NCBI GenBank assembly: GCA_000004985.1
Contig: GG738885.1
Strand: one strand, 5' to 3'
Source of the DNA: Naegleria gruberi
Taxonomy: Eukaryota
Length of the DNA: 64,000 bases
Shown here one piece after another: positions 42,278-60,076 of this stretch. A program made the translations under genes and the position numbers. The notes under the pieces were generated by a model. The model had not been told where the DNA came from, searched no databases, and was given only the letters and a program-made list of their open reading frames with translations. Position 1 is the first letter of the stretch; each line of letters starts with the position of its first letter.

Positions 42278-42721
42278 ACCTTAATAAAAATGATCACTCT
42301 ATCACCCACAACCTGACATTCTCAAAACCAATTTATCGTACCAAATTATACTCCAACTTCCTCTTCAAAACCAACACTCTAACTATGTTTTTATTATTTC
42401 CTTCGAATATTTGGTTTTCATCCGTTCCCATAAATGGATCGGGTTGTTATCGCTTGCGATACATCTAAAAAAATACGCGCTTATTGTCCACCTCAGAAGA
42501 CAACACATGGTGATGGACGAATGTAAAGTCGAGGTGATTTTAATGTGTACGACAAGTGGTGAAGGAGACTTTTCGACCATGATTGGATCTTACGCATCAA
42601 AGAGTTGAAATTTCCCTCATCTCTCTTGTTGCTATGATCCTCAATATAAATAGAGGGAAGAAAATCTCCATCAATACAATACAACAATAAGAAAAAAACA
42701 AAACAACACAACAACTTGATA

Positions 42722-45700
42722 ATGACTCAAGGAACATCTGATCAACAAACATGTCCAGTATCAGGCATGAGCACTCAAAATAATGAAGCTCAATGTCCAT
42801 TTGCTTCTGCTGATTCTCGTCGTAATAGTAAAGGAAGCAATGGCAGTAATCAACCATGTAAAGAAGAACCAATTCCTCAACCAGAACCACACTTTCTCGT
42901 TGGTAATATCTTTACAGTCGATAAAAAGAATCCATTTCCAAGTTTTATTGAATTGGCCAAAAAGTTCGATGGTATTTTCAAGATGAATATATTAGGTAAA
43001 CAATTAGTAGTAGTTTACAGTCAAGAATTGGTCAATGAATTATGTGATGAGAGCAGATTTGAAAAGGCACTTCCTCCAGGATTAAAACACGTTAAAGAGT
43101 TTGGTGGGGATGGTTTATTCACTGCAGAGAATAATGAACCAAATTGGGCTATTGCTCACAGAATTTTAATGCCAGCCTTTGGTCCAAAATCAATTCAGGA
43201 TATGTATCCTCAAATGTATGATATTGCAGAACAATTGTGTACCAAATGGGAAAGATTGGGAGAGCACTCAGTTATTGACATTGTTGATAACATGACCAGA
43301 TTGACCTTAGATACAATTGCCTTGTGTGCATTCAACTATAGATTTAACAGTTTCTATCATAATGAAATGCATCCATTCGTACAGTCCATGTTCGAGGCAT
43401 TGCAAGAAGCCAGCTCTAGAACTAAGAGACCTTCCATTTTGAACAATGTCTTGGTCAAGACAAAGAAAAAGCATCAAAGAAATATTGAATATATGCATGC
43501 AGTTGCAGACGAGATTGTAAAGGACAGAAAGAAGAATCCAAGTGATGTTAACGATTTGCTTAATAGAATGTTACTTGGAAAGGATCCAGTCACCAATCAA
43601 GGATTAAGTGATGAAAATATTAGATATCAAATGGTCACGTTTTTGATAGCCGGGCACGAGACGACTAGTGGTCTTTTGAGTTTCACGCTTTATGAACTTC
43701 TCAAACATCCAGAAGTTTTAAAGAAAGCTCAAAAAGAAGTTGACACTGTGATTGGAAATGAAAATATTCAAATCAAACATATTCCACAACTTGTCTATTT
43801 GGATCAAATCCTCAAAGAAACTCTTCGTCTGTGGCCAACTGCTCCTGGATTTGGTCTTGGTTGTAAAACTGATCAAGTCATTGGTGGAAAGTATAGAATT
43901 CACCCTTCAGATTTTATTATTGTGAGTAATTCCAATTTGCACAGAGATAAGAAAGTTTGGGGTGAAGATTGTGAACAATTCAATCCTGATAGAATGAGCC
44001 CAGAAAACTTTTCCTCACTTCCAAGTAACAGTTGGAAACCTTTTGGTAATGGATCGAGAGGTTGCATTGGCCGTCCATTTGCTTGGCAAGAAGCAATTTT
44101 GGTATTGGCTATGGTTCTTCAAAGATTTGAACTGATTGAGAATGATCCAAATTATCACTTGTCCATTACCCAAGCTTTGACCATCAAGCCAAATGGATTA
44201 TTCCTCAAAGTTAAGCCAAGATCTAATTGGAAAGGATCTCAATTGGTGAGAACTAATGCTTCTAATACTAGTTCTGAAAATTCTCATACTGATGATCAAA
44301 ATTCCACATCTACCGAATCAAAGGGTCCACTTTTGGTCTTGTACGGTTCTAACAGTGGTACATGTGAAAGCTTTGCCTCAATGTTGCACCAAGATGCTAA
44401 ATCCAAAGGATTTGATTGTAAAGTTGGTAGATTGAACACATTTACTGGTAACATTCCATTGGATACTCCAATTCTCATTGTAACAGCTTCATATGAAGGT
44501 CAACCAACTGAAGATGCCAAACAATTCGTTGGATGGCTCGAACATGTTCCAGAAAATACTCTCAAAGGACTCAAATATGCAGTTTTCGGATGTGGACACA
44601 GTGATTGGGTTGACACCTATCAAAGAATTCCAACATTCATTGACAACAAATTGAGTGAAGCTGGTGGTGAGAGAATTGCCCAGAGAGGAATTGGTAATGC
44701 TGCCAAAGACTTATTCTGTGAATTTGATCAGTGGAGAAAGACATTGTGGAGTTCTTTCGATCCTCATACCTCTCACGAACTTCCTCCAGTTGAAACAACC
44801 ATCATTAAGGGACATAGAGAAACAATTCTCCATTTCCAAAGTTTGGAACCTGGAAAGGTAATTGAAAATTATGATTTGGTTCCTGAGGACTATTGTGATG
44901 ATCATGGAACTTGTAGATCCAAGAGACATATTGAAATTCAATTGCCAGCTGGAGCTCATTATGAATCAGGTGATTATTTATCAGTATTACCTGTCAACTC
45001 TATGAAAGTTGTTAATAAGGCACTTTCTCATTTCAAATTAACTCACGATGATCAAATTGTCTTGAAGAGAAGTGAAACAATTTCATCTTCATCCTATCCT
45101 GTCAATGAGCCAATCTCTGCAGTCAACTTGTTCATGAATTATTTCGAATTGAGTCAACCAGCAACCAAGAGACAATTAGAAATTCTCCTCGAACACACAA
45201 AGGAAGCATCCGATAAGCAAGTACTCCAACAATTAATAGAAAAGGACTCTAACATTCCTCCAATTCTTGATATCGTTCATGATTTGAAATCTTGTACAAT
45301 TCCACTCGGAAATTTCTTGGATATTTCAATTCCTATGCGTACAAGACAATACTCAATCTCATCCTCTCCATTGTGGAATAAGGACAAGTGTACCATTACT
45401 GTTGGTGTATTGAGAGCTCCAGCAACCCATGGAAAAGGATTCCACGAAGGGGTTGCCTCCAATTTCTTGGCAAGTTGTCTTCCAGATATGCAAGTTTCGG
45501 TTCAAATTAGAAACTCTTCCTTCAAATTACCTAATGACCCATCTGTTCCAATTATCATGATTGGAGCTGGTACTGGTATTGCTCCATTCAGAGGTTTCGT
45601 TCAGGAAAGAGCTTGTCTCATTAAGGAAGGTAAGACTCTTGGTAAGGCTCTCTTGTTCCAAGGATGCAGAAATCCAGAACAAGATTACTTGTACAAGAAG

Positions 45701-45994
45701 GAACTCGAAGAATGGAGTCAATTGGGAGCTGTTGAATTGAGACCAGTTTTCTCAAGAATGGGAAGTAACGTAAAATATGTTCAAGATAAGATTATGGAAT
45801 GCAAGGAAGAAGTTGCTAAACTCTTACTGGAAGAAGCTCAAATCTACATTTGTGGTGAAGGAAATCATATGGCACCTGCTGTTAAGAAAGTCTTGATGGA
45901 AATTTATCAACAAGTTACCAATTGTACAAAGGAAGAAGCTGAAAAGAGAATGAGCTCGATGGATAAGCGTTTTGCTGTTGATGTTTTTGCATAA
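42722..45994 (+). CDS. Self-sufficient cytochrome P450–NADPH-P450 reductase fusion (CYP102/CYP505 'BM3/P450foxy' type)
   Basis: P450 half has FLIAGHETTSGLLSF (I-helix), ETLRLWPTAP (ExxR) and FGNGSRGCIGRPFA (Cys-heme loop). Reductase half has the flavodoxin LLVLYGSNSGTCESFA, FAD RQYSISSSP, and the NADPH MIGAGTGIAPFRGF and CGEGNHM blocks. Single 1091-codon ORF. Confidence 0.95.
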   Translation: MTQGTSDQQTCPVSGMSTQNNEAQCPFASADSRRNSKGSNGSNQPCKEEPIPQPEPHFLVGNIFTVDKKNPFPSFIELAKKFDGIFKMNILGKQLVVVYSQELVNELCDESRFEKALPPGLKHVKEFGGDGLFTAENNEPNWAIAHRILMPAFGPKSIQDMYPQMYDIAEQLCTKWERLGEHSVIDIVDNMTRLTLDTIALCAFNYRFNSFYHNEMHPFVQSMFEALQEASSRTKRPSILNNVLVKTKKKHQRNIEYMHAVADEIVKDRKKNPSDVNDLLNRMLLGKDPVTNQGLSDENIRYQMVTFLIAGHETTSGLLSFTLYELLKHPEVLKKAQKEVDTVIGNENIQIKHIPQLVYLDQILKETLRLWPTAPGFGLGCKTDQVIGGKYRIHPSDFIIVSNSNLHRDKKVWGEDCEQFNPDRMSPENFSSLPSNSWKPFGNGSRGCIGRPFAWQEAILVLAMVLQRFELIENDPNYHLSITQALTIKPNGLFLKVKPRSNWKGSQLVRTNASNTSSENSHTDDQNSTSTESKGPLLVLYGSNSGTCESFASMLHQDAKSKGFDCKVGRLNTFTGNIPLDTPILIVTASYEGQPTEDAKQFVGWLEHVPENTLKGLKYAVFGCGHSDWVDTYQRIPTFIDNKLSEAGGERIAQRGIGNAAKDLFCEFDQWRKTLWSSFDPHTSHELPPVETTIIKGHRETILHFQSLEPGKVIENYDLVPEDYCDDHGTCRSKRHIEIQLPAGAHYESGDYLSVLPVNSMKVVNKALSHFKLTHDDQIVLKRSETISSSSYPVNEPISAVNLFMNYFELSQPATKRQLEILLEHTKEASDKQVLQQLIEKDSNIPPILDIVHDLKSCTIPLGNFLDISIPMRTRQYSISSSPLWNKDKCTITVGVLRAPATHGKGFHEGVASNFLASCLPDMQVSVQIRNSSFKLPNDPSVPIIMIGAGTGIAPFRGFVQERACLIKEGKTLGKALLFQGCRNPEQDYLYKKELEEWSQLGAVELRPVFSRMGSNVKYVQDKIMECKEEVAKLLLEEAQIYICGEGNHMAPAVKKVLMEIYQQVTNCTKEEAEKRMSSMDKRFAVDVFA

Positions 45995-46183: not shown

Positions 46184-47143
46184 TTACAAGGATGGCTTTT
46201 CTGACTTTTTGCATGTCTTTCTCTTGATACAAATCTTCTTCTTGATTGACTTGCAACACTTCTTCTTTCCACCAACCAATTTGAATTTCTTACAAATCTT
46301 CTTTCCCTTAGAACGTTTCAAACACTTCTTATAATACTTCTTCTTGAGACATCTTGGTGGAATGACAATTGATTTGGCACAATATTTCTTCTTTTGATAT
46401 TTGACACATTTAGAAAGAGTCTTCTTGTGCTTACAGAACTTGATAGTCTTATGCTTGGCACAGAAGAATTTCTTCTTAATGAGACAACATTTCTTGATGG
46501 ATTTTCTCTCCTTACAGTATTTAACCTTCTTATACTTGGCACATTTCTTTGCCCATGCAACAATCTTGCACTTTTTAACATATCTACATTTGGCAACCTT
46601 CTTCTTATAGGAATCAACAGTGTACTTATCGCAAATCTTCTTCTTTTCACACTTCTTGATTGGAACCTTCTTGAATTTCTTACAGACCTTCTTATATCCC
46701 TTCTTGACGCACTTGTTGACAATCTTGTGTTTGGCACAGAATTTCTTGTAACCCTTCTTCACACAAATCTTCTTAGTTCCATAAGAATCACAAACTTTCC
46801 AGTGCTTCTTCTTGGCACAACCAACAATCTTGTACGCATGCAAGACACATTTCTTTGTTGGCTTGCTATACTTGTCACATTTGGAATATTTCTTATGTTT
46901 GAGACATTTACCAGCACCGACAATGGCATATTGATCACAGACCTTCTTTTGACCAACGAGTTTGTGTTTCAAACACTTCTTAATCCACTTGTGCTTTAAA
47001 CATTTTCTCTTACTAATCTTTGGCTTGTGATACTTGTCAACTACGACTGGTCCAGGTTTGGTTTGATAGCTGTCAGTTGCTTGAACTGAAAGAATGGCAA
47101 GCAGGAGAAGAATTGCAATTGAAACAATTAGATTTGCTTTCAT
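46184..47143 (-). CDS. Secreted, extremely Lys/Cys-rich repetitive protein (319 aa)
   Basis: ATG at 47141..47143. Signal peptide MKANLIVSIAILLLLAILSVQA. The mature part is roughly one third Lys with Cys spaced about every 8–12 residues, in degenerate repeats CLKHK.., KKCVKKGYKK(F/V)C, KKCAKYKKVKYC. The underlying DNA repeats generate long shadow ORFs in other frames. Confidence 0.6.
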   Translation of the reverse strand: MKANLIVSIAILLLLAILSVQATDSYQTKPGPVVVDKYHKPKISKRKCLKHKWIKKCLKHKLVGQKKVCDQYAIVGAGKCLKHKKYSKCDKYSKPTKKCVLHAYKIVGCAKKKHWKVCDSYGTKKICVKKGYKKFCAKHKIVNKCVKKGYKKVCKKFKKVPIKKCEKKKICDKYTVDSYKKKVAKCRYVKKCKIVAWAKKCAKYKKVKYCKERKSIKKCCLIKKKFFCAKHKTIKFCKHKKTLSKCVKYQKKKYCAKSIVIPPRCLKKKYYKKCLKRSKGKKICKKFKLVGGKKKCCKSIKKKICIKRKTCKKSEKPSL

Positions 47144-47416: not shown

Positions 47417-48805
47417 CTATTGGAGATTACATTTTTGCTTTGTTCGTACTTTGGGTGATCCTATTGCCTTTTTACAATAAAAGTTTTGAACTAATTCCCT
47501 AACTTTTTGTTTAAGATTCGAATCGAAATCTGGTGCATCACTAATTACTAGTTCAGAAATACTTCCATACTGCTGAACATAATCTATGAATGCATGTAAT
47601 TGCTGCATTACTGAACCTATTATTATGAATGATTAGAGATTGAAGTAATTTTGGTTTGGATTTCAGATACTTAATTATTCCTGAATCAGTATTACCACAA
47701 TTAATAACTGTTAATCTAGTAATGGATCATTCCGTATTCCCAAATAACTCAAATCCATCATCTCCAATGTTTTGGTTTGAAGAAATAACCAATTCTCTCA
47801 AATGTTTCATATTTGCAATGATTTTACATGATTTAAACGAAATGGCATTGTTGCTCAAATTTAGATAATGCATTTTCTTAAATTCATTCCTACTCAAAAA
47901 TTCCATAACTGTGCTATCCTCAATATTATTGAATCCAACATGTAAATATTCCAAACTATAACAATGACACAACTAGGTCAACCCATTTCCAATTTTGTTA
48001 TCATGTAAATTGAAATGTTTCAATAATTTCAAATTTCCAAAATTTTTCAAACCTTCGCTACCTATCATATTCATTTCCAAATGTAATTCTTCCAGTTTAA
48101 CATTTTCTGATAAATAATTGGCTCCAACATCTCCTATTTGATTTTTTCTCACATCCAATTGTTTGAGTTGAATAGTTTAGTTCAGTGTGATTCCAATTTA
48201 TAAAGATGTTCCAATGCTGATTTTTTCAAATCAATCAAATAAATACACTTTCAACTTTTTAGCAAATTTGCTTTCGAATATTGAAATTAATGATTTTGAA
48301 TGCAAGTGACCGAATAATATTAATTTCTCCAATGGCCAATCCAATTTATCAAAAAGTAAATTTTCATCTCCCGAATTTGTCATTATTTTCATGGAGAGTG
48401 ATTTAATTTTTGACTTGCTTTCGAATAGTAAATTAATACTTTTAATACTCAATCCAGGTAATTCCATTTCTTGTAATGTTTTCAATTTTTCAATTTCAAT
48501 AATTAAATCATCACTACAGCTACTTTTCAATTTCAATACTTTCAAATTGGTTAACATGGAAATAAACGAATCTAAACTTATTCTCGTTTTGAAATTTAAA
48601 TGTGTTACCTTGCTCAATTTATCAGAATATTCAATTCGTGGGAATTTCTTGGCAGCAGCGGAAAGTAAAAAGTTTTTATGGATTTGTAATTTTCATTCCA
48701 ATATTTACAAACTAATCTGACATTGTTTAAAATCCATCGATATTCGAAATAGATGAAAATTTGATCAAAAATTATTTCGTGCGAAAGCAGAGAATGTACT
48801 TGCAT
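47417..48805 (-). pseudogene. F-box + RNI-type LRR gene, fragmented (in-frame TAG, frameshift): probable pseudogene
   Basis: Five collinear minus ORFs encode an F-box (LSHEIIFDQIFIYFEYRWILNNVRLVCKYW) then RNI-like LRRs (NQIGDVGANYLSENVKLEELHLEMNMIGSEGLK...). An in-frame TAG at plus 47973..47975 (CTA) sits between ...KIGNGLT and CHCYSLEYL.... The 48614/48617 junction overlaps out of frame. Confidence 0.45.
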
Positions 48806-56883: not shown

Positions 56884-59800
56884 ATGGCATCAAATTCTTC
56901 ATTGAAAATTGAAGAATTTTCATCATCCGAAAATAATAATAGTTCAACTTCATCATGTGGAGTTACTACTACAACTAGTGCTGCTTTTAATGATTTACCC
57001 GATAGTGTATTGGGTAATATAATGTCTTTTGTATTTTCATCATTTAAATATCAATTAAACAAGCCTTTGATATCTTCATCATTCCATAGAACAAGTAATA
57101 ATAATTCGGAAGAACAAAATCATCATCATCATAATGGAGAAGTAAATGATTCATCATTATCTTCATCTATAGAACAAGATTGTTCTCCAGAGGAATTATA
57201 TCATCGATCTATTTATGAATTGGAAACTCTGCCCTCTGTTTCTCAATCTCCACTTCATAAGTATTTGCACAAGAATGTAAAGTTTCATCGTTCTAATAAT
57301 GGAGCAAATAGAGAATTTGATGAAGCAGATGATGAAGATTTTGATGAGGATACAAATTTTGGATTGATAGGAAGTGGAGATATAAATTACGAACAAAAGA
57401 TGATTGGTAACTTTTGTGAGTTTTTGCAGAATTGGATAAGTTTTGCATCTGTAAATAGCAAATTGAGAAAGTTTATGAAGAGAAGCAAATCTGTAGGAGA
57501 TTTGATTGAATTTGATTTGATTAATTTTGCTTATTTCTACATGTTTAATAATGAAAAGTTGGTCTCTCCCACCTATTCATGTGTTGTGGAAGGACAAGAC
57601 GTTTTCGTAAGGAATGAGTATAGAACTGTTGTTCATCAATTATTTATGGATTTTATCAGAGTATTTGTTGATAGAGAGTTTGTTAAGAGAATTTGTTTGG
57701 ATTGTTCCTATTTGTTTGATTGGGTTCCTATTAATGGGGATTCTCTTATTGATGATGGTGATTGCAAGACGTTCACTATCGACCCAAGCCCATCAACAAC
57801 TCCAAATTATTTGGAAGATTATAACAAGATGTTTCCCAATGTAAATGTCCTTACTATTAATTTTACCTACAGAGGAAAAACAGAGGGTTATGAGGAGAAT
57901 GAGCTGAGCCTTGATGATTTGCAATCGCACTTGCTAACACTCGATACTAGCAATTTCCAAACTCTCTCACATTGGAAGCACTTGAATGAATTAAGATTGT
58001 GTTGGCATGTCGATGTGGATGAGGATACTCAAGTATTGGACCTTGTTTTAGGATCTCATCTGATGCAAGAGTTTTTGAATATTGTCTCTGAGGCCAAGAA
58101 AATTAATCACTTATTGTATATATCAGTGTATATTAATGGATCTGCATTCCATGTAACAAGGACTGAATCTGGTCAAATTATTTGCAATGATTCCTATCCT
58201 ACTAGGGTTATGGAAGAATTGAGCAATGTTGTCGACGAAAACTCAATGCTCAAATTACTCTATATTTGTATTGATCATTATGGCTATGCACACTATAAGA
58301 AACAACCATTGCAACTTTCTCTTATGGAAAATATTCTTCACATTGAAATTAATGACATTACTTGCCCAACTATTAACCAATTATTTAATTTATCATATCC
58401 TAAATTGTTGACATTAATATTGACCGACATTTGTGCTCCATCAAAGGAGGAGAGAGATGTTGCCATTACATCAAAGTTTCCAAAACTCGAGGAGCTACTC
58501 ATCAAATCCAAATTGAATTCCACTAGTAGATACACTAAATTCAATTTGGATTTGAGCCATATGAAAGCAGAAAAGATTAAGAAAGTTTGTTTGTATGGTG
58601 TAAATGATTTCCTCATTTCTAAGAATTCATTTGGAAACGTCATTGAAACTCTTGAAATACTAGTGCTGAAGGACAATACCTTTAATTATTCTCACTGGTT
58701 TACAAGCTTATCCTCTCTGAAGAATCTTCGCTTCAAAGTGGAACCAACAAAAAAGAGAGTGGATGAAACAGACTACGATGACGAGTCTGTAATGCTCTGC
58801 ACTACACGTATGAAATCTTGTACCACAATTGTTCACGATAAGCTCACCAATTTGCATATCAAAGATAGGAATACAAAGGGAATTTCTGTAATATGCCCTC
58901 GTCTCAAGGAGCTCGTAGTGAAGGCACCCAACATTGAAAGTTGTGAAATTTTGTGCCCAACCGTAAAAACTATTGATTTGAATGATATTTTAATGGGATT
59001 CGAACAACCACACAATCACTCTGGAAACTTTATGAAATTTATCAAGTATTCCTCACATCAATGGAAGTGGCACACTCCACTGTTGAATCAATTGAATTTA
59101 ATGCACTCCCTGAGACCAAATTATACCACCAATGATAATGGAGGAACTAATGCCCTCATTCTGCCAAATGCTCTCATTTCTCATGTTAAGGAGTTACAAG
59201 TTAAATTATCGGTGACTACCTTTGATAATGAAAAGGAATTATTCCCACCCTTGTTTGCCAGAATTGATAATCTATGTGGACACAAGAACCTACACGGAAC
59301 TTTGGAGAAGGTTAAAATCAAATTGGATATTGCAACATACTACCTCTCAGAACCAATGCTCAAACATTTCAGAGCAGTTTTGGAATGGAATGGAAATGGA
59401 AATAATGCCTATGACAGTGATTCAATGAAGCTCACAATACAACAAATTATCCAAGTTGCTAAATGTGTAGACCACTTTACAGATCATACCATGATTTTGG
59501 ATTCTCCATACTTGGCTTCTTTGGATGTTCATTTGGATGAAAAGGTTGAAAGAACCAAGATATCATGTCCGAACTTGAAGAGATTTGAACTTATTGATTG
59601 TAATTTACCTGGTCGTGTCAAATTCAGTGATGAGACTGCCTCATCCCTTGAACACATCTGCTTAGTTGGCATTTGTTCACCATTCAATCCACCTCCACAC
59701 TCATTCTTTCAAGAATCTGAAAATCTTAGAGTTGGTCGATCCACTCCAAAGATTTTCTGTTCAATTAGAGCAATTGCCAGCATTGGAAGTTTTGGATATC

Positions 59801-60076
59801 AGAAGAGAATACGGCCAAACTCCACATGAGAGATCCTATGTACAACTTGAAAATTACACCCACACCAACATCAGAATGATAAGAATCAATAATATCCGTA
59901 ATGTTAGCATTTCTTTGAAATTGGATACACCTAAATTAAGAATTGTTCAAGTTTCATCAGTGACTTGCAAGAATTGTGATATTGAGTTTGTAAATTGTCC
60001 AAGATTACTCAAAAAAGAAATTCAATTCACCATCTTACAGCCATCACCCAGACTTGCTCCTAAGGAATTTATATAA
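56884..60076 (+). CDS. Large F-box-like/LRR-like protein; C-terminal part continues in a different frame (frameshift or tiny intron near 59700)
   Basis: ATG at 56884. DLPDSVLGNIMSFVF is F-box-like. The body is degenerate LRR-like. ORF 59666..60076 overlaps the end of the main ORF and continues LRR-like text (LKILELVDPLQRFSVQLEQLPALEVLDI), implying a +1/−1 shift between about 59690 and 59720. Confidence 0.45.

Follow-up and report, generated by a model that had tools for sequence, protein, structure and literature searches.

The window analysed here, a stretch of 64,000 nucleotides from contig GG738885.1 of Naegleria gruberi (NCBI GenBank assembly GCA_000004985.1), contains at 46184..47143 on the minus strand an intron-less gene for a lysine- and cysteine-rich protein of 319 amino acid residues. 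The cysteines of this protein are spaced mirror-symmetrically about the middle of the chain. The reading we favour, although it falls somewhat short of an even chance, is that of a secreted, disulfide-laddered polycationic rod which serves outside the cell as a building block for the cyst wall or the cell coat. The hairpin ladder and the rod shape are suggested by the mirrored cysteine spacing, by compensating arm lengths among paralogues and by an AlphaFold model; the wall localisation and the cross-linking chemistry are speculative. The gene itself is not new, as its family has been in the databases since 2010 under the name of 'predicted proteins', but its architecture and function are undescribed.

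According to this proposal, the mature chain of 297 residues would fold back on itself at residues 172-185, and residues 48-171 and 186-305 would run antiparallel as a two-stranded ribbon pinned by ~14 nested disulfide rungs, one per ~9 residues. The outcome would be a thin rod with a net charge of ~+100, a few tens of nanometres long if straight; the dimensions expected from the ladder model are 20-45 nm in length and ~1-2 nm in width. The disulfide ladder would give the rod stiffness and protease resistance, the lysine surface would glue it to anionic wall polymers, and three spare cysteines together with the tyrosines of D-x-Y motifs at both rod ends would permit covalent cross-links between molecules. 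The broader claim, namely that a hairpin of ~300 residues with arms of ~125 residues and 14-18 nested rungs at a 9-residue period constitutes an undescribed architecture, a polycationic rod of tens of nanometres usable as a wall or matrix brick that is cross-linkable via spare cysteines and D-x-Y motifs, is put forward as possible rather than probable. The features of the gene are as follows.

46184..47143, minus strand: complete single-exon coding sequence (CDS), 319 codons plus stop (open reading frame (ORF) call, dN/dS against the orthologue L002, Naegleria and Willaertia homologues)
47078..47143, minus strand: signal-peptide-like N-terminus, residues 1-22 (MKANLIVSIAILLLLAILSVQA), predicted cleavage after VQA (sequence, modelled helix, paralogues)
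47003..47077, minus strand: N-terminal tail, residues 23-47, containing the D-x-Y motifs TDSY and VDKY; modelled with low confidence or as disordered (pLDDT ~40-46)
46631..47002, minus strand: predicted hairpin N-arm, residues 48-171, with 14 rung cysteines at 48, 57, 69, 80, 89, 99, 109, 118, 127, 136, 145, 154, 165 and 171 (mirrored cysteine spacing, AlphaFold strands)
46589..46630, minus strand: predicted loop at the hairpin tip, residues 172-185 (DKYTVDSYKKKVAK), with two D-x-Y motifs (cysteine-free gap, pLDDT dip)
46211..46588, minus strand: predicted hairpin C-arm, residues 186-311, with 14 rung cysteines at 186, 192, 201, 210, 219, 228, 237, 246, 255, 265, 274, 284, 296 and 305 and spare cysteines at 220, 297 and 311 (mirrored cysteine spacing, AlphaFold strands)
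46184..46210, minus strand: C-terminal tail KKSEKPSL plus stop codon (sequence)
46394..46999, plus strand: opposite-strand, TTG-initiated ORF of 201 amino acids, an artefact (non-conserved; substitutions fit the minus-strand frame)

Cysteine spacing and the predicted hairpin

An ORF of 319 amino acids with a signal peptide had been claimed in an initial annotation made from the sequence alone, and it was recovered at exactly these coordinates with an ATG start. The N-terminus (MKANLIVSIAILLLLAILSVQA, followed by TD) has a lysine-containing charged n-region, a hydrophobic core of 16 residues and V-x-A at positions -3 to -1; residues 3-20 are modelled as a helix by AlphaFold, and every full-length paralogue carries an N-terminus of the same type. 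By the classical -3/-1 rule, MKANLIVSIAILLLLAILSVQA would be a cleavable signal peptide with its cleavage site after VQA, through which the product would enter the secretory pathway. Inspection of the C-terminal sequence revealed neither a KDEL/HDEL signal nor a hydrophobic glycosylphosphatidylinositol-anchoring or transmembrane segment. The mature chain (297 aa, 34.9 kDa, pI 10.15) contains 107 lysines (36%), 6 arginines and 31 cysteines, with 113 lysines and arginines versus 10 aspartates and glutamates; it has a single asparagine and no N-glycosylation sequon. Most of the cysteine-to-cysteine intervals equal 9, the autocorrelation of the cysteines at lag 9 lies at z = 8.4 above composition-preserving shuffles, and harmonics appear at lags 18, 27 and 36. 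The earlier description of the mature chain as about one-third lysine with regular cysteines is thereby borne out. The underlying nonapeptide unit has the consensus C-[ALV]-K-[KH]-K-x-[IYVW]-K-[K/hydrophobic], and no amphipathic periodicity of lysines or hydrophobic residues was seen in the mature chain.

On either side of residue ~178 the cysteine spacings mirror each other, and this also holds for the irregular intervals of 6, 10 and 12. Residues 172-185 form the sole 15-residue cysteine-free gap, flanked by mirrored 6-residue intervals; read outwards from this gap, the spacings are 6,11,9,9,9,9,9,10,10,9,11,12,9 on the N side and 6,9,9,9,9,9,9,9,10,9,10,12,9 on the C side. A ladder score was calculated by dynamic programming and compared with the same score on shuffled spacings. 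For the window protein the score was 10, which none of 200 shuffles reached, their maximum being 9. Scores above all 200-500 shuffles were obtained for the window protein, for its orthologue L002, which is carried by a Logan contig (SRR32051688) with 77% nucleotide identity, and for the family members P0004, P0006, P0008, P0009, P0028, P0031, L003 and L005; in P0003 and P0017 the score was reached by 1-4 of 200 shuffles. Changes of interval length are compensated between the arms: the 12/12 pair of the window protein is 9/9 in P0003, 17 stands opposite 18 in P0004, P0008 and P0009, 15-17 opposite 21 in P0010 and P0029, and 11 opposite 11 in P0018 and P0031. When seven members are pooled, the interval lengths of the N-arm and those of the C-arm give a Spearman coefficient of 0.83, calculated on interval pairs that were chosen by the optimiser, and 43 of 52 non-9 intervals agree within 1 residue. 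The tip varies in length from 2 to 41 residues among the paralogues, the arms staying matched.

Because the spacing is mirrored and the arm-length changes are matched, we infer an antiparallel pairing of the two halves with nested cysteine rungs. Going beyond the initial annotation, the palindromic pattern points to a disulfide-ladder hairpin of the whole chain and not to a string of independent small repeats. From the tip outwards, the implied rungs would be C171-C186, C165-C192, C154-C201, C145-C210, C136-C219, C127-C228 and C118-C237, followed by the outer rungs C109-C246, C99-C255, C89-C265, C80-C274, C69-C284, C57-C296 and C48-C305. The motif C-x-K-[HF]-K-L-V-G-x-K-K-x-C occurs in both of the facing 12-residue intervals, which results in a local two-fold symmetry. 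The total number of cysteines is odd (31), and C220, C297 and C311 are left over in this scheme. C297 is replaced by phenylalanine in L002; C311 has a partner (a cysteine ~4 residues before C48, forming C-x3-C at the start of the N-arm) in P0001, L003 and P0004, a position occupied by serine in the window protein. L003 possesses two extra cysteines without a possible partner inside the rod.

Two other sources of the symmetry were considered. The arms are alike as 9-mer repeats, yet a tandem duplication predicts translational symmetry, and the mirror pattern was rejected as its by-product. An antiparallel homodimer also fits the palindrome and was judged less likely, since the central segment, with its 2-41 residues, varies as a loop would.

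Independently of the spacing analysis, AlphaFold was run with an alignment of 13 sequences and yielded five models with mean pLDDT values of 76, 60, 58, 55 and 46. In the best of them (pLDDT 76), the blocks 80-170 and 190-280 reach 87-94 and the confidence falls at the tip residues 172-185. The strands of this model (E50-62, 67-75, 80-92 and 96-171 versus E186-261, 265-277, 281-289 and 294-307) are mirrored with i+j ~356 and form one giant two-stranded antiparallel hairpin. The only neighbours found by Foldseek with this model, none of them significant, were the very long two-stranded antiparallel hairpin stems of pore-forming toxins (lysenin, aerolysin, epsilon toxin and anthrax PA).

Several observations weigh against the hairpin. 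The ladder is less well supported in P0010, P0018 and P0029, whose score is reached by 9-17 of 200 shuffles, and the tests are non-independent because the paralogues are related. A single one of the five AlphaFold models is confident, the pTM is 0.29 and the alignment is shallow; with an alignment of 5 sequences the prediction was mostly unconfident (pLDDT 44). The predicted register lacks a depletion of cross-strand lysine-lysine pairs, 23 being observed versus ~18 expected. Furthermore, disulfides are rare at the hydrogen-bonded pair sites of antiparallel ribbons, and an irregular or bulged structure must be assumed because the odd 9-residue period alternates the rungs between hydrogen-bonded and non-hydrogen-bonded sites.

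An alternative in which the cysteines form mostly local disulfides or remain reduced would turn the protein into a polycation that is flexible and for the most part disordered ('beads on a string'), with the palindrome and the AlphaFold model being misleading. It draws on the mostly disordered outcome of the first AlphaFold run and on the mediocre quality of four of the five models of the second, on a lysine content of 36% that favours disorder, on a rung spacing that is awkward for a regular ribbon, and on the fact that the N- and C-arms, both read in one direction, also resemble each other as 9-mer repeats (hhalign probability 94%). Local pairing leaves unexplained, however, why the irregular spacings (6, 10, 12, 17/18 and 11/11) recur mirrored and not translated, and why among the paralogues an insertion or deletion in one arm has its counterpart in the other. 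We consider this alternative unlikely.

Coding status, family and locus

The minus-strand sequence 46184..47143 is a functional intron-less gene under purifying selection. Its alignment with L002 is confined to the CDS, extending from 11 nt before the ATG to just short of the stop. The differences fall on minus-strand codon positions 1, 2 and 3 in the numbers 47/36/113, and dN/dS is 0.136 at a dS of ~1.06. Conserved are 30 of the 31 cysteines, and 95 of the 106 aligned lysines remain lysine or arginine. Counting against this, L002 has one in-frame stop after 'SYKIN', where the window reads V-G (KIVGCA versus KIN-stop-CS); the remaining frame is intact and constrained, and the stop may reflect an error of the assembly, a polymorphism or a gene that has recently become a pseudogene.

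Several long ORFs overlap here across both strands, and the reading that no gene exists at all, be it that the frame is a chance ORF in biased sequence or that the opposite-strand ORF is the real one, takes its support from them. These long frames on the other strand and in other frames arise because the 79 AAG and 29 AAA codons read CTT and TTT on the opposite strand. The opposite-strand ORF at 46394..46999 starts with TTG, not a start codon that a eukaryote would use, and contains no ATG. Its frame is not conserved: where the window has an antisense open frame of 208 aa, L002 has one of 99-100 aa and L001 one of 136 aa, and the substitutions fit the minus-strand frame; as a real product it was rejected. 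Signal peptide and cysteine frame are both preserved in the homologues across N. gruberi, N. fowleri and Willaertia. Together with the purifying selection in the minus-strand frame, this leaves the non-gene reading a negligible probability. The initial annotation had likewise regarded the opposite-strand ORF as an artefact, and it had attributed such ORFs to repetitive DNA. The artefact ORFs follow from the lysine-codon composition, and the description as repetitive DNA is overstated: Tandem Repeats Finder (TRF) detected one weak array in the gene (12 bp x 2.4), and a repeat search returned only short copies of 18-41 nt with 61-90% identity, their spacings all being multiples of 3. The repeats of the gene are old, in-frame and degenerate, and its DNA is not tandemly repetitive; a recent amplification of repeats at the DNA level was rejected, given the weak array and the short, diverged copies.

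The codon usage differs from that of seven neighbouring genes: AAG accounts for 73% versus 48% (79 AAG against 29 AAA codons), TTC for 6/6 versus 38% (no TTT), ATA for 0 versus 14% and GCC for 53% versus 19%. Such a strong bias hints at substantial expression. In a JGI metagenome (Ga0115593), three different family members (L003-L005) are present on separate contigs of 1.08-1.23 kb with one gene each; two of these contigs begin 6-16 nt upstream of the ATG, and all stop 100-150 nt past the stop codon. They look like assembled transcripts, as a metatranscriptome would give. If Ga0115593 is indeed a metatranscriptome, members of the family are transcribed under natural conditions.

A profile run exhaustively against 1.84 billion representatives retrieved only 21 proteins at E<=1e-3. 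N. gruberi supplies the closest proteins, among them NAEGRDRAFT_67458 (E 6e-58, 46% identity, 89% coverage) and NAEGRDRAFT_64508 (E 4e-23). Further members in this species are NAEGRDRAFT_48501, 64980, 66117 and 57793; other named members are FDP41_004030 and FDP41_002578 from N. fowleri, C9374_009239 from N. lovaniensis and a fragment from Willaertia magna, and the remaining matches are unnamed metagenome or soil sequences. Every member is annotated as a hypothetical or predicted protein. The homologues, which the initial annotation had not described, show, as far as sequence searches reach, a family restricted to vahlkampfiid amoebae (Naegleria and Willaertia), larger in the free-living N. 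gruberi (at least 7 paralogues) than in N. fowleri (2 found). The claim that the protein belongs to no nameable family still stands: a Pfam search gave no match for the window protein, even at E<=1, nor for 7 paralogues; PDB sequences, queried with the family profile and also with a long-form member, yielded no meaningful match, and among PDB folds no relative was found. Thus, no curated family or solved structure in Pfam-A, PDB sequences or PDB folds matched above threshold. Literature searches covering the locus tags of all named members and Naegleria cyst wall, encystment, RNA-seq, proteomics and cyst-wall chemistry found no paper that mentions a family member; the supplement of an N. fowleri cyst/trophozoite transcriptome contains no relevant accession, and a pangenome paper does not mention the family.

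Conserved across the family, the long forms included, are the cysteine frame and the C-terminal block RCxKKxxxKxCxxxSxGxKxCxKYxxxGGKKxC, which in the window protein reads PRCLKKKYYKKCLKRSKGKKICKKFKLVGGKKKC and aligns with all members. The protein also displays the family hallmark of a signal peptide followed by a palindromic cysteine lattice, with outer spacings of ~10,12,10-11,9,10 on the N side and, as their mirror image, 9,12,10,9,10 on the C side. The members compared are all net positive (+20 to +104), but the extreme lysine content is not family-wide, the long forms (~705 aa) and P0018 having ~14% lysine. According to these comparisons, the core of the family is the cysteine frame and not the charge. 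The long forms P0028, P0031 and P0017 carry at residues ~100-375 an extra N-terminal module of repeated 4-Cys units with spacings of 18,5,5,12 or 18,5,5,8 and a recurrent 'CP…C.G'; it had no match in Pfam or PDB and may be a second undescribed cysteine-repeat domain.

One gene model of strain NEG-M, NAEGRDRAFT_76199 (P0002, 443 aa), includes a part that is 95% identical to the C-terminal half of the lysine- and cysteine-rich protein (window 46184..46585). Its N-terminal SAM/PB1 part has no match anywhere in the window, and the model lies on a short contig of 39.8 kb. It is a chimeric gene model, probably caused by an assembly or annotation error, and is flagged here as an error of the reference-genome annotation that includes half of the gene.

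The window has a GC content of ~33% and contains no second copy of the gene. The neighbouring genes are unrelated eukaryotic ones, encoding a P450-BM3-like fusion of cytochrome P450 and reductase, a RhoGEF, Kelch proteins, a thioredoxin-TPR protein, an enoyl-CoA hydratase, a short-chain dehydrogenase/reductase (SDR), a 2-oxoglutarate (2OG) oxygenase and an RGS protein. The fusion gene directly adjoins the lysine- and cysteine-rich gene in convergent orientation; it is an intron-less ORF of 1092 aa at 42716..45994 (plus strand) for a self-sufficient enzyme with P450, flavodoxin, FAD-binding and NAD-binding reductase domains (Pfam E 6e-88, 1e-25, 3e-23 and 2e-15). Directly upstream, at 47417..48617 (minus strand), lie short minus-strand ORFs with leucine-rich-repeat (LRR)-like sequence, e.g. 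LHLEMNMIGSEGLKNFGNLKLLKHFNLHDNKIG, a run that looks like a single LRR gene broken by introns or frame changes. Further away, at 56884..59829 (plus strand), an ORF of 981 aa without a Pfam match at E<=0.001 encodes a large uncharacterised protein.

Proposed role and comparison with known systems

A structural role of the putative rod is favoured because its D-x-Y motifs are placed at the ends, because the cysteine count is odd and leaves spare cysteines, and because the strong constraint is unlike that of arms-race effectors. The addition of a second cysteine-repeat module in the long-form paralogues, reminiscent of modular matrix proteins, also speaks for it. All seven aspartates of the mature protein lie in D-x-Y motifs (TDSY, VDKY, CDQY, CDKY, CDSY, CDKY and VDSY), a count reached by 0 of 100,000 shuffles. 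The motifs not linked to a cysteine are located in the N-terminal tail and at the hairpin tip, i.e. at both predicted rod ends, and the others follow a rung cysteine. Short-form paralogues have 5-12 copies and long forms none; tandem (K/A)ID(S/T)YKP tails occur among the paralogues, e.g. KIDTYKPAIDSYKPTIDSYKPKIDSYKP in N. fowleri FDP41_004030. The D-[ST]-Y-[GAK]-[AP] motifs found here (VDSYKP, DSYAPK, VDTYGEH and CDSYGTK), in tandem at the chain ends of paralogues, recall the resilin repeat GGRPSDSYGAPGGGN, in which dityrosine provides the cross-links (PMC7794388). In contrast to the present protein, resilin is cysteine-free, rich in glycine and proline and disordered, and the shared stretch comprises just 4-5 residues; the likeness is a lead.

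Protist cyst and oocyst wall proteins offer a functional analogy. COWP/OWP of Cryptosporidium and Toxoplasma, the CWPs of Giardia, Jacob of Entamoeba and the Luke, Leo and Jonah lectins of the Acanthamoeba cyst wall (PMC6541295) share with the window protein a signal peptide, many regularly spaced cysteines, several paralogues and a restriction to cyst-forming lineages. For these proteins a disulfide-stabilised extracellular structural role has been shown, whereas here it is proposed. They are built from local cysteine-knotted or lectin domains, are not polycationic, and no nested ladder of the whole chain has been described for them; Pfam and PDB searches revealed no sequence or profile similarity. 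Another parallel is given by mussel foot proteins and the sandcastle-worm cement, secreted polycations rich in lysine, tyrosine and cysteine which act through electrostatic complexation and covalent curing and which, unlike the present protein, depend on DOPA and phosphoserine partners. The analogy is one of composition, without homology, and these adhesives have no periodic cysteine ladder.

Two points tell against the structural role as formulated. The extreme basicity is a property of one subfamily, the long forms having 14% lysine and no D-x-Y motifs, and on this account a 'polycation glue' cannot be the function of the whole family. In addition, the literature searches gave no expression, proteome, localisation or disulfide-mapping data on family members.

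The main rival, already raised in the initial annotation and held here to be rather unlikely, is an antimicrobial or prey-handling polycation, a giant analogue of beta-hairpin peptides that would be secreted or phagosomal and would bind, agglutinate or permeabilise anionic bacterial envelopes. Naegleria is a bacterivore, which suits such a role, and the codon bias suggests high expression; the family, moreover, is expanded in the free-living N. gruberi (at least 7 members) and smaller in N. fowleri (2 found). The signal peptide, a net charge of ~+100 and the predicted cysteine-stapled antiparallel hairpin recall the chemistry of tachyplesin, protegrin and theta-defensin. These peptides and arenicin have 17-25 residues and 1-3 disulfides 2-4 residues apart, and they are cleaved from precursors. 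The likeness consists in secretion, a strongly cationic character and antiparallel strands with nested cross-strand disulfides, here predicted; the differences are ~260 laddered residues, ~14 rungs 9 residues apart and no sequence similarity. With 35 kDa, a mature chain of 297 aa and 31 cysteines, the protein lies far above any known hairpin antimicrobial peptide and outside a class whose mature peptides are shorter than ~30 aa and combine 1-3 cross-strand disulfides with an amphipathic cationic surface, no amphipathic face being evident. A dN/dS of 0.14 and the near-complete conservation of lysines are atypical of immune effectors, distant members are just mildly basic, and the D-x-Y end motifs and spare cysteines have no obvious role in killing.

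The initial annotation had also considered a nucleic-acid-condensing role, which conflicts with the signal peptide. In a wider form, the protein would package polyanions, condensing nucleic acid, polyphosphate or acidic polysaccharide in the manner of protamines, in secretory vesicles or extracellularly. The extreme basicity combined with cysteine cross-links would suit such a function, and two-stranded beta-ribbons fit into nucleic-acid grooves, as is generally known from the HU/IHF arms. Protamine- and histone-like condensers, however, are targeted to the nucleus, rich in arginine and without a secretory signal, whereas here a signal peptide would route the protein away from the nucleus and 107 lysines stand against 6 arginines. 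The family core is the cysteine frame, and Pfam and PDB profile searches found no nucleic-acid-binding domain. We regard packaging as very improbable.

The cyst is the resistant, transmissible stage of Naegleria, the genus of the brain-eating N. fowleri, and to our knowledge next to nothing is known about the molecules that make up its cyst walls and surface coats. If the hairpin proposed here is correct, it would be by far the longest known nested cystine ladder and would provide a simple, evolvable rule (a cysteine every 9 residues, mirrored) for stiff, protease-resistant rods, which would be of interest for structural biology and the design of protein materials. Were the protein antibacterial instead, it would represent a new class of amoebal effector. 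If it is an abundant, lineage-specific wall or coat protein, it would be a useful marker or target, N. fowleri having two members of the family.

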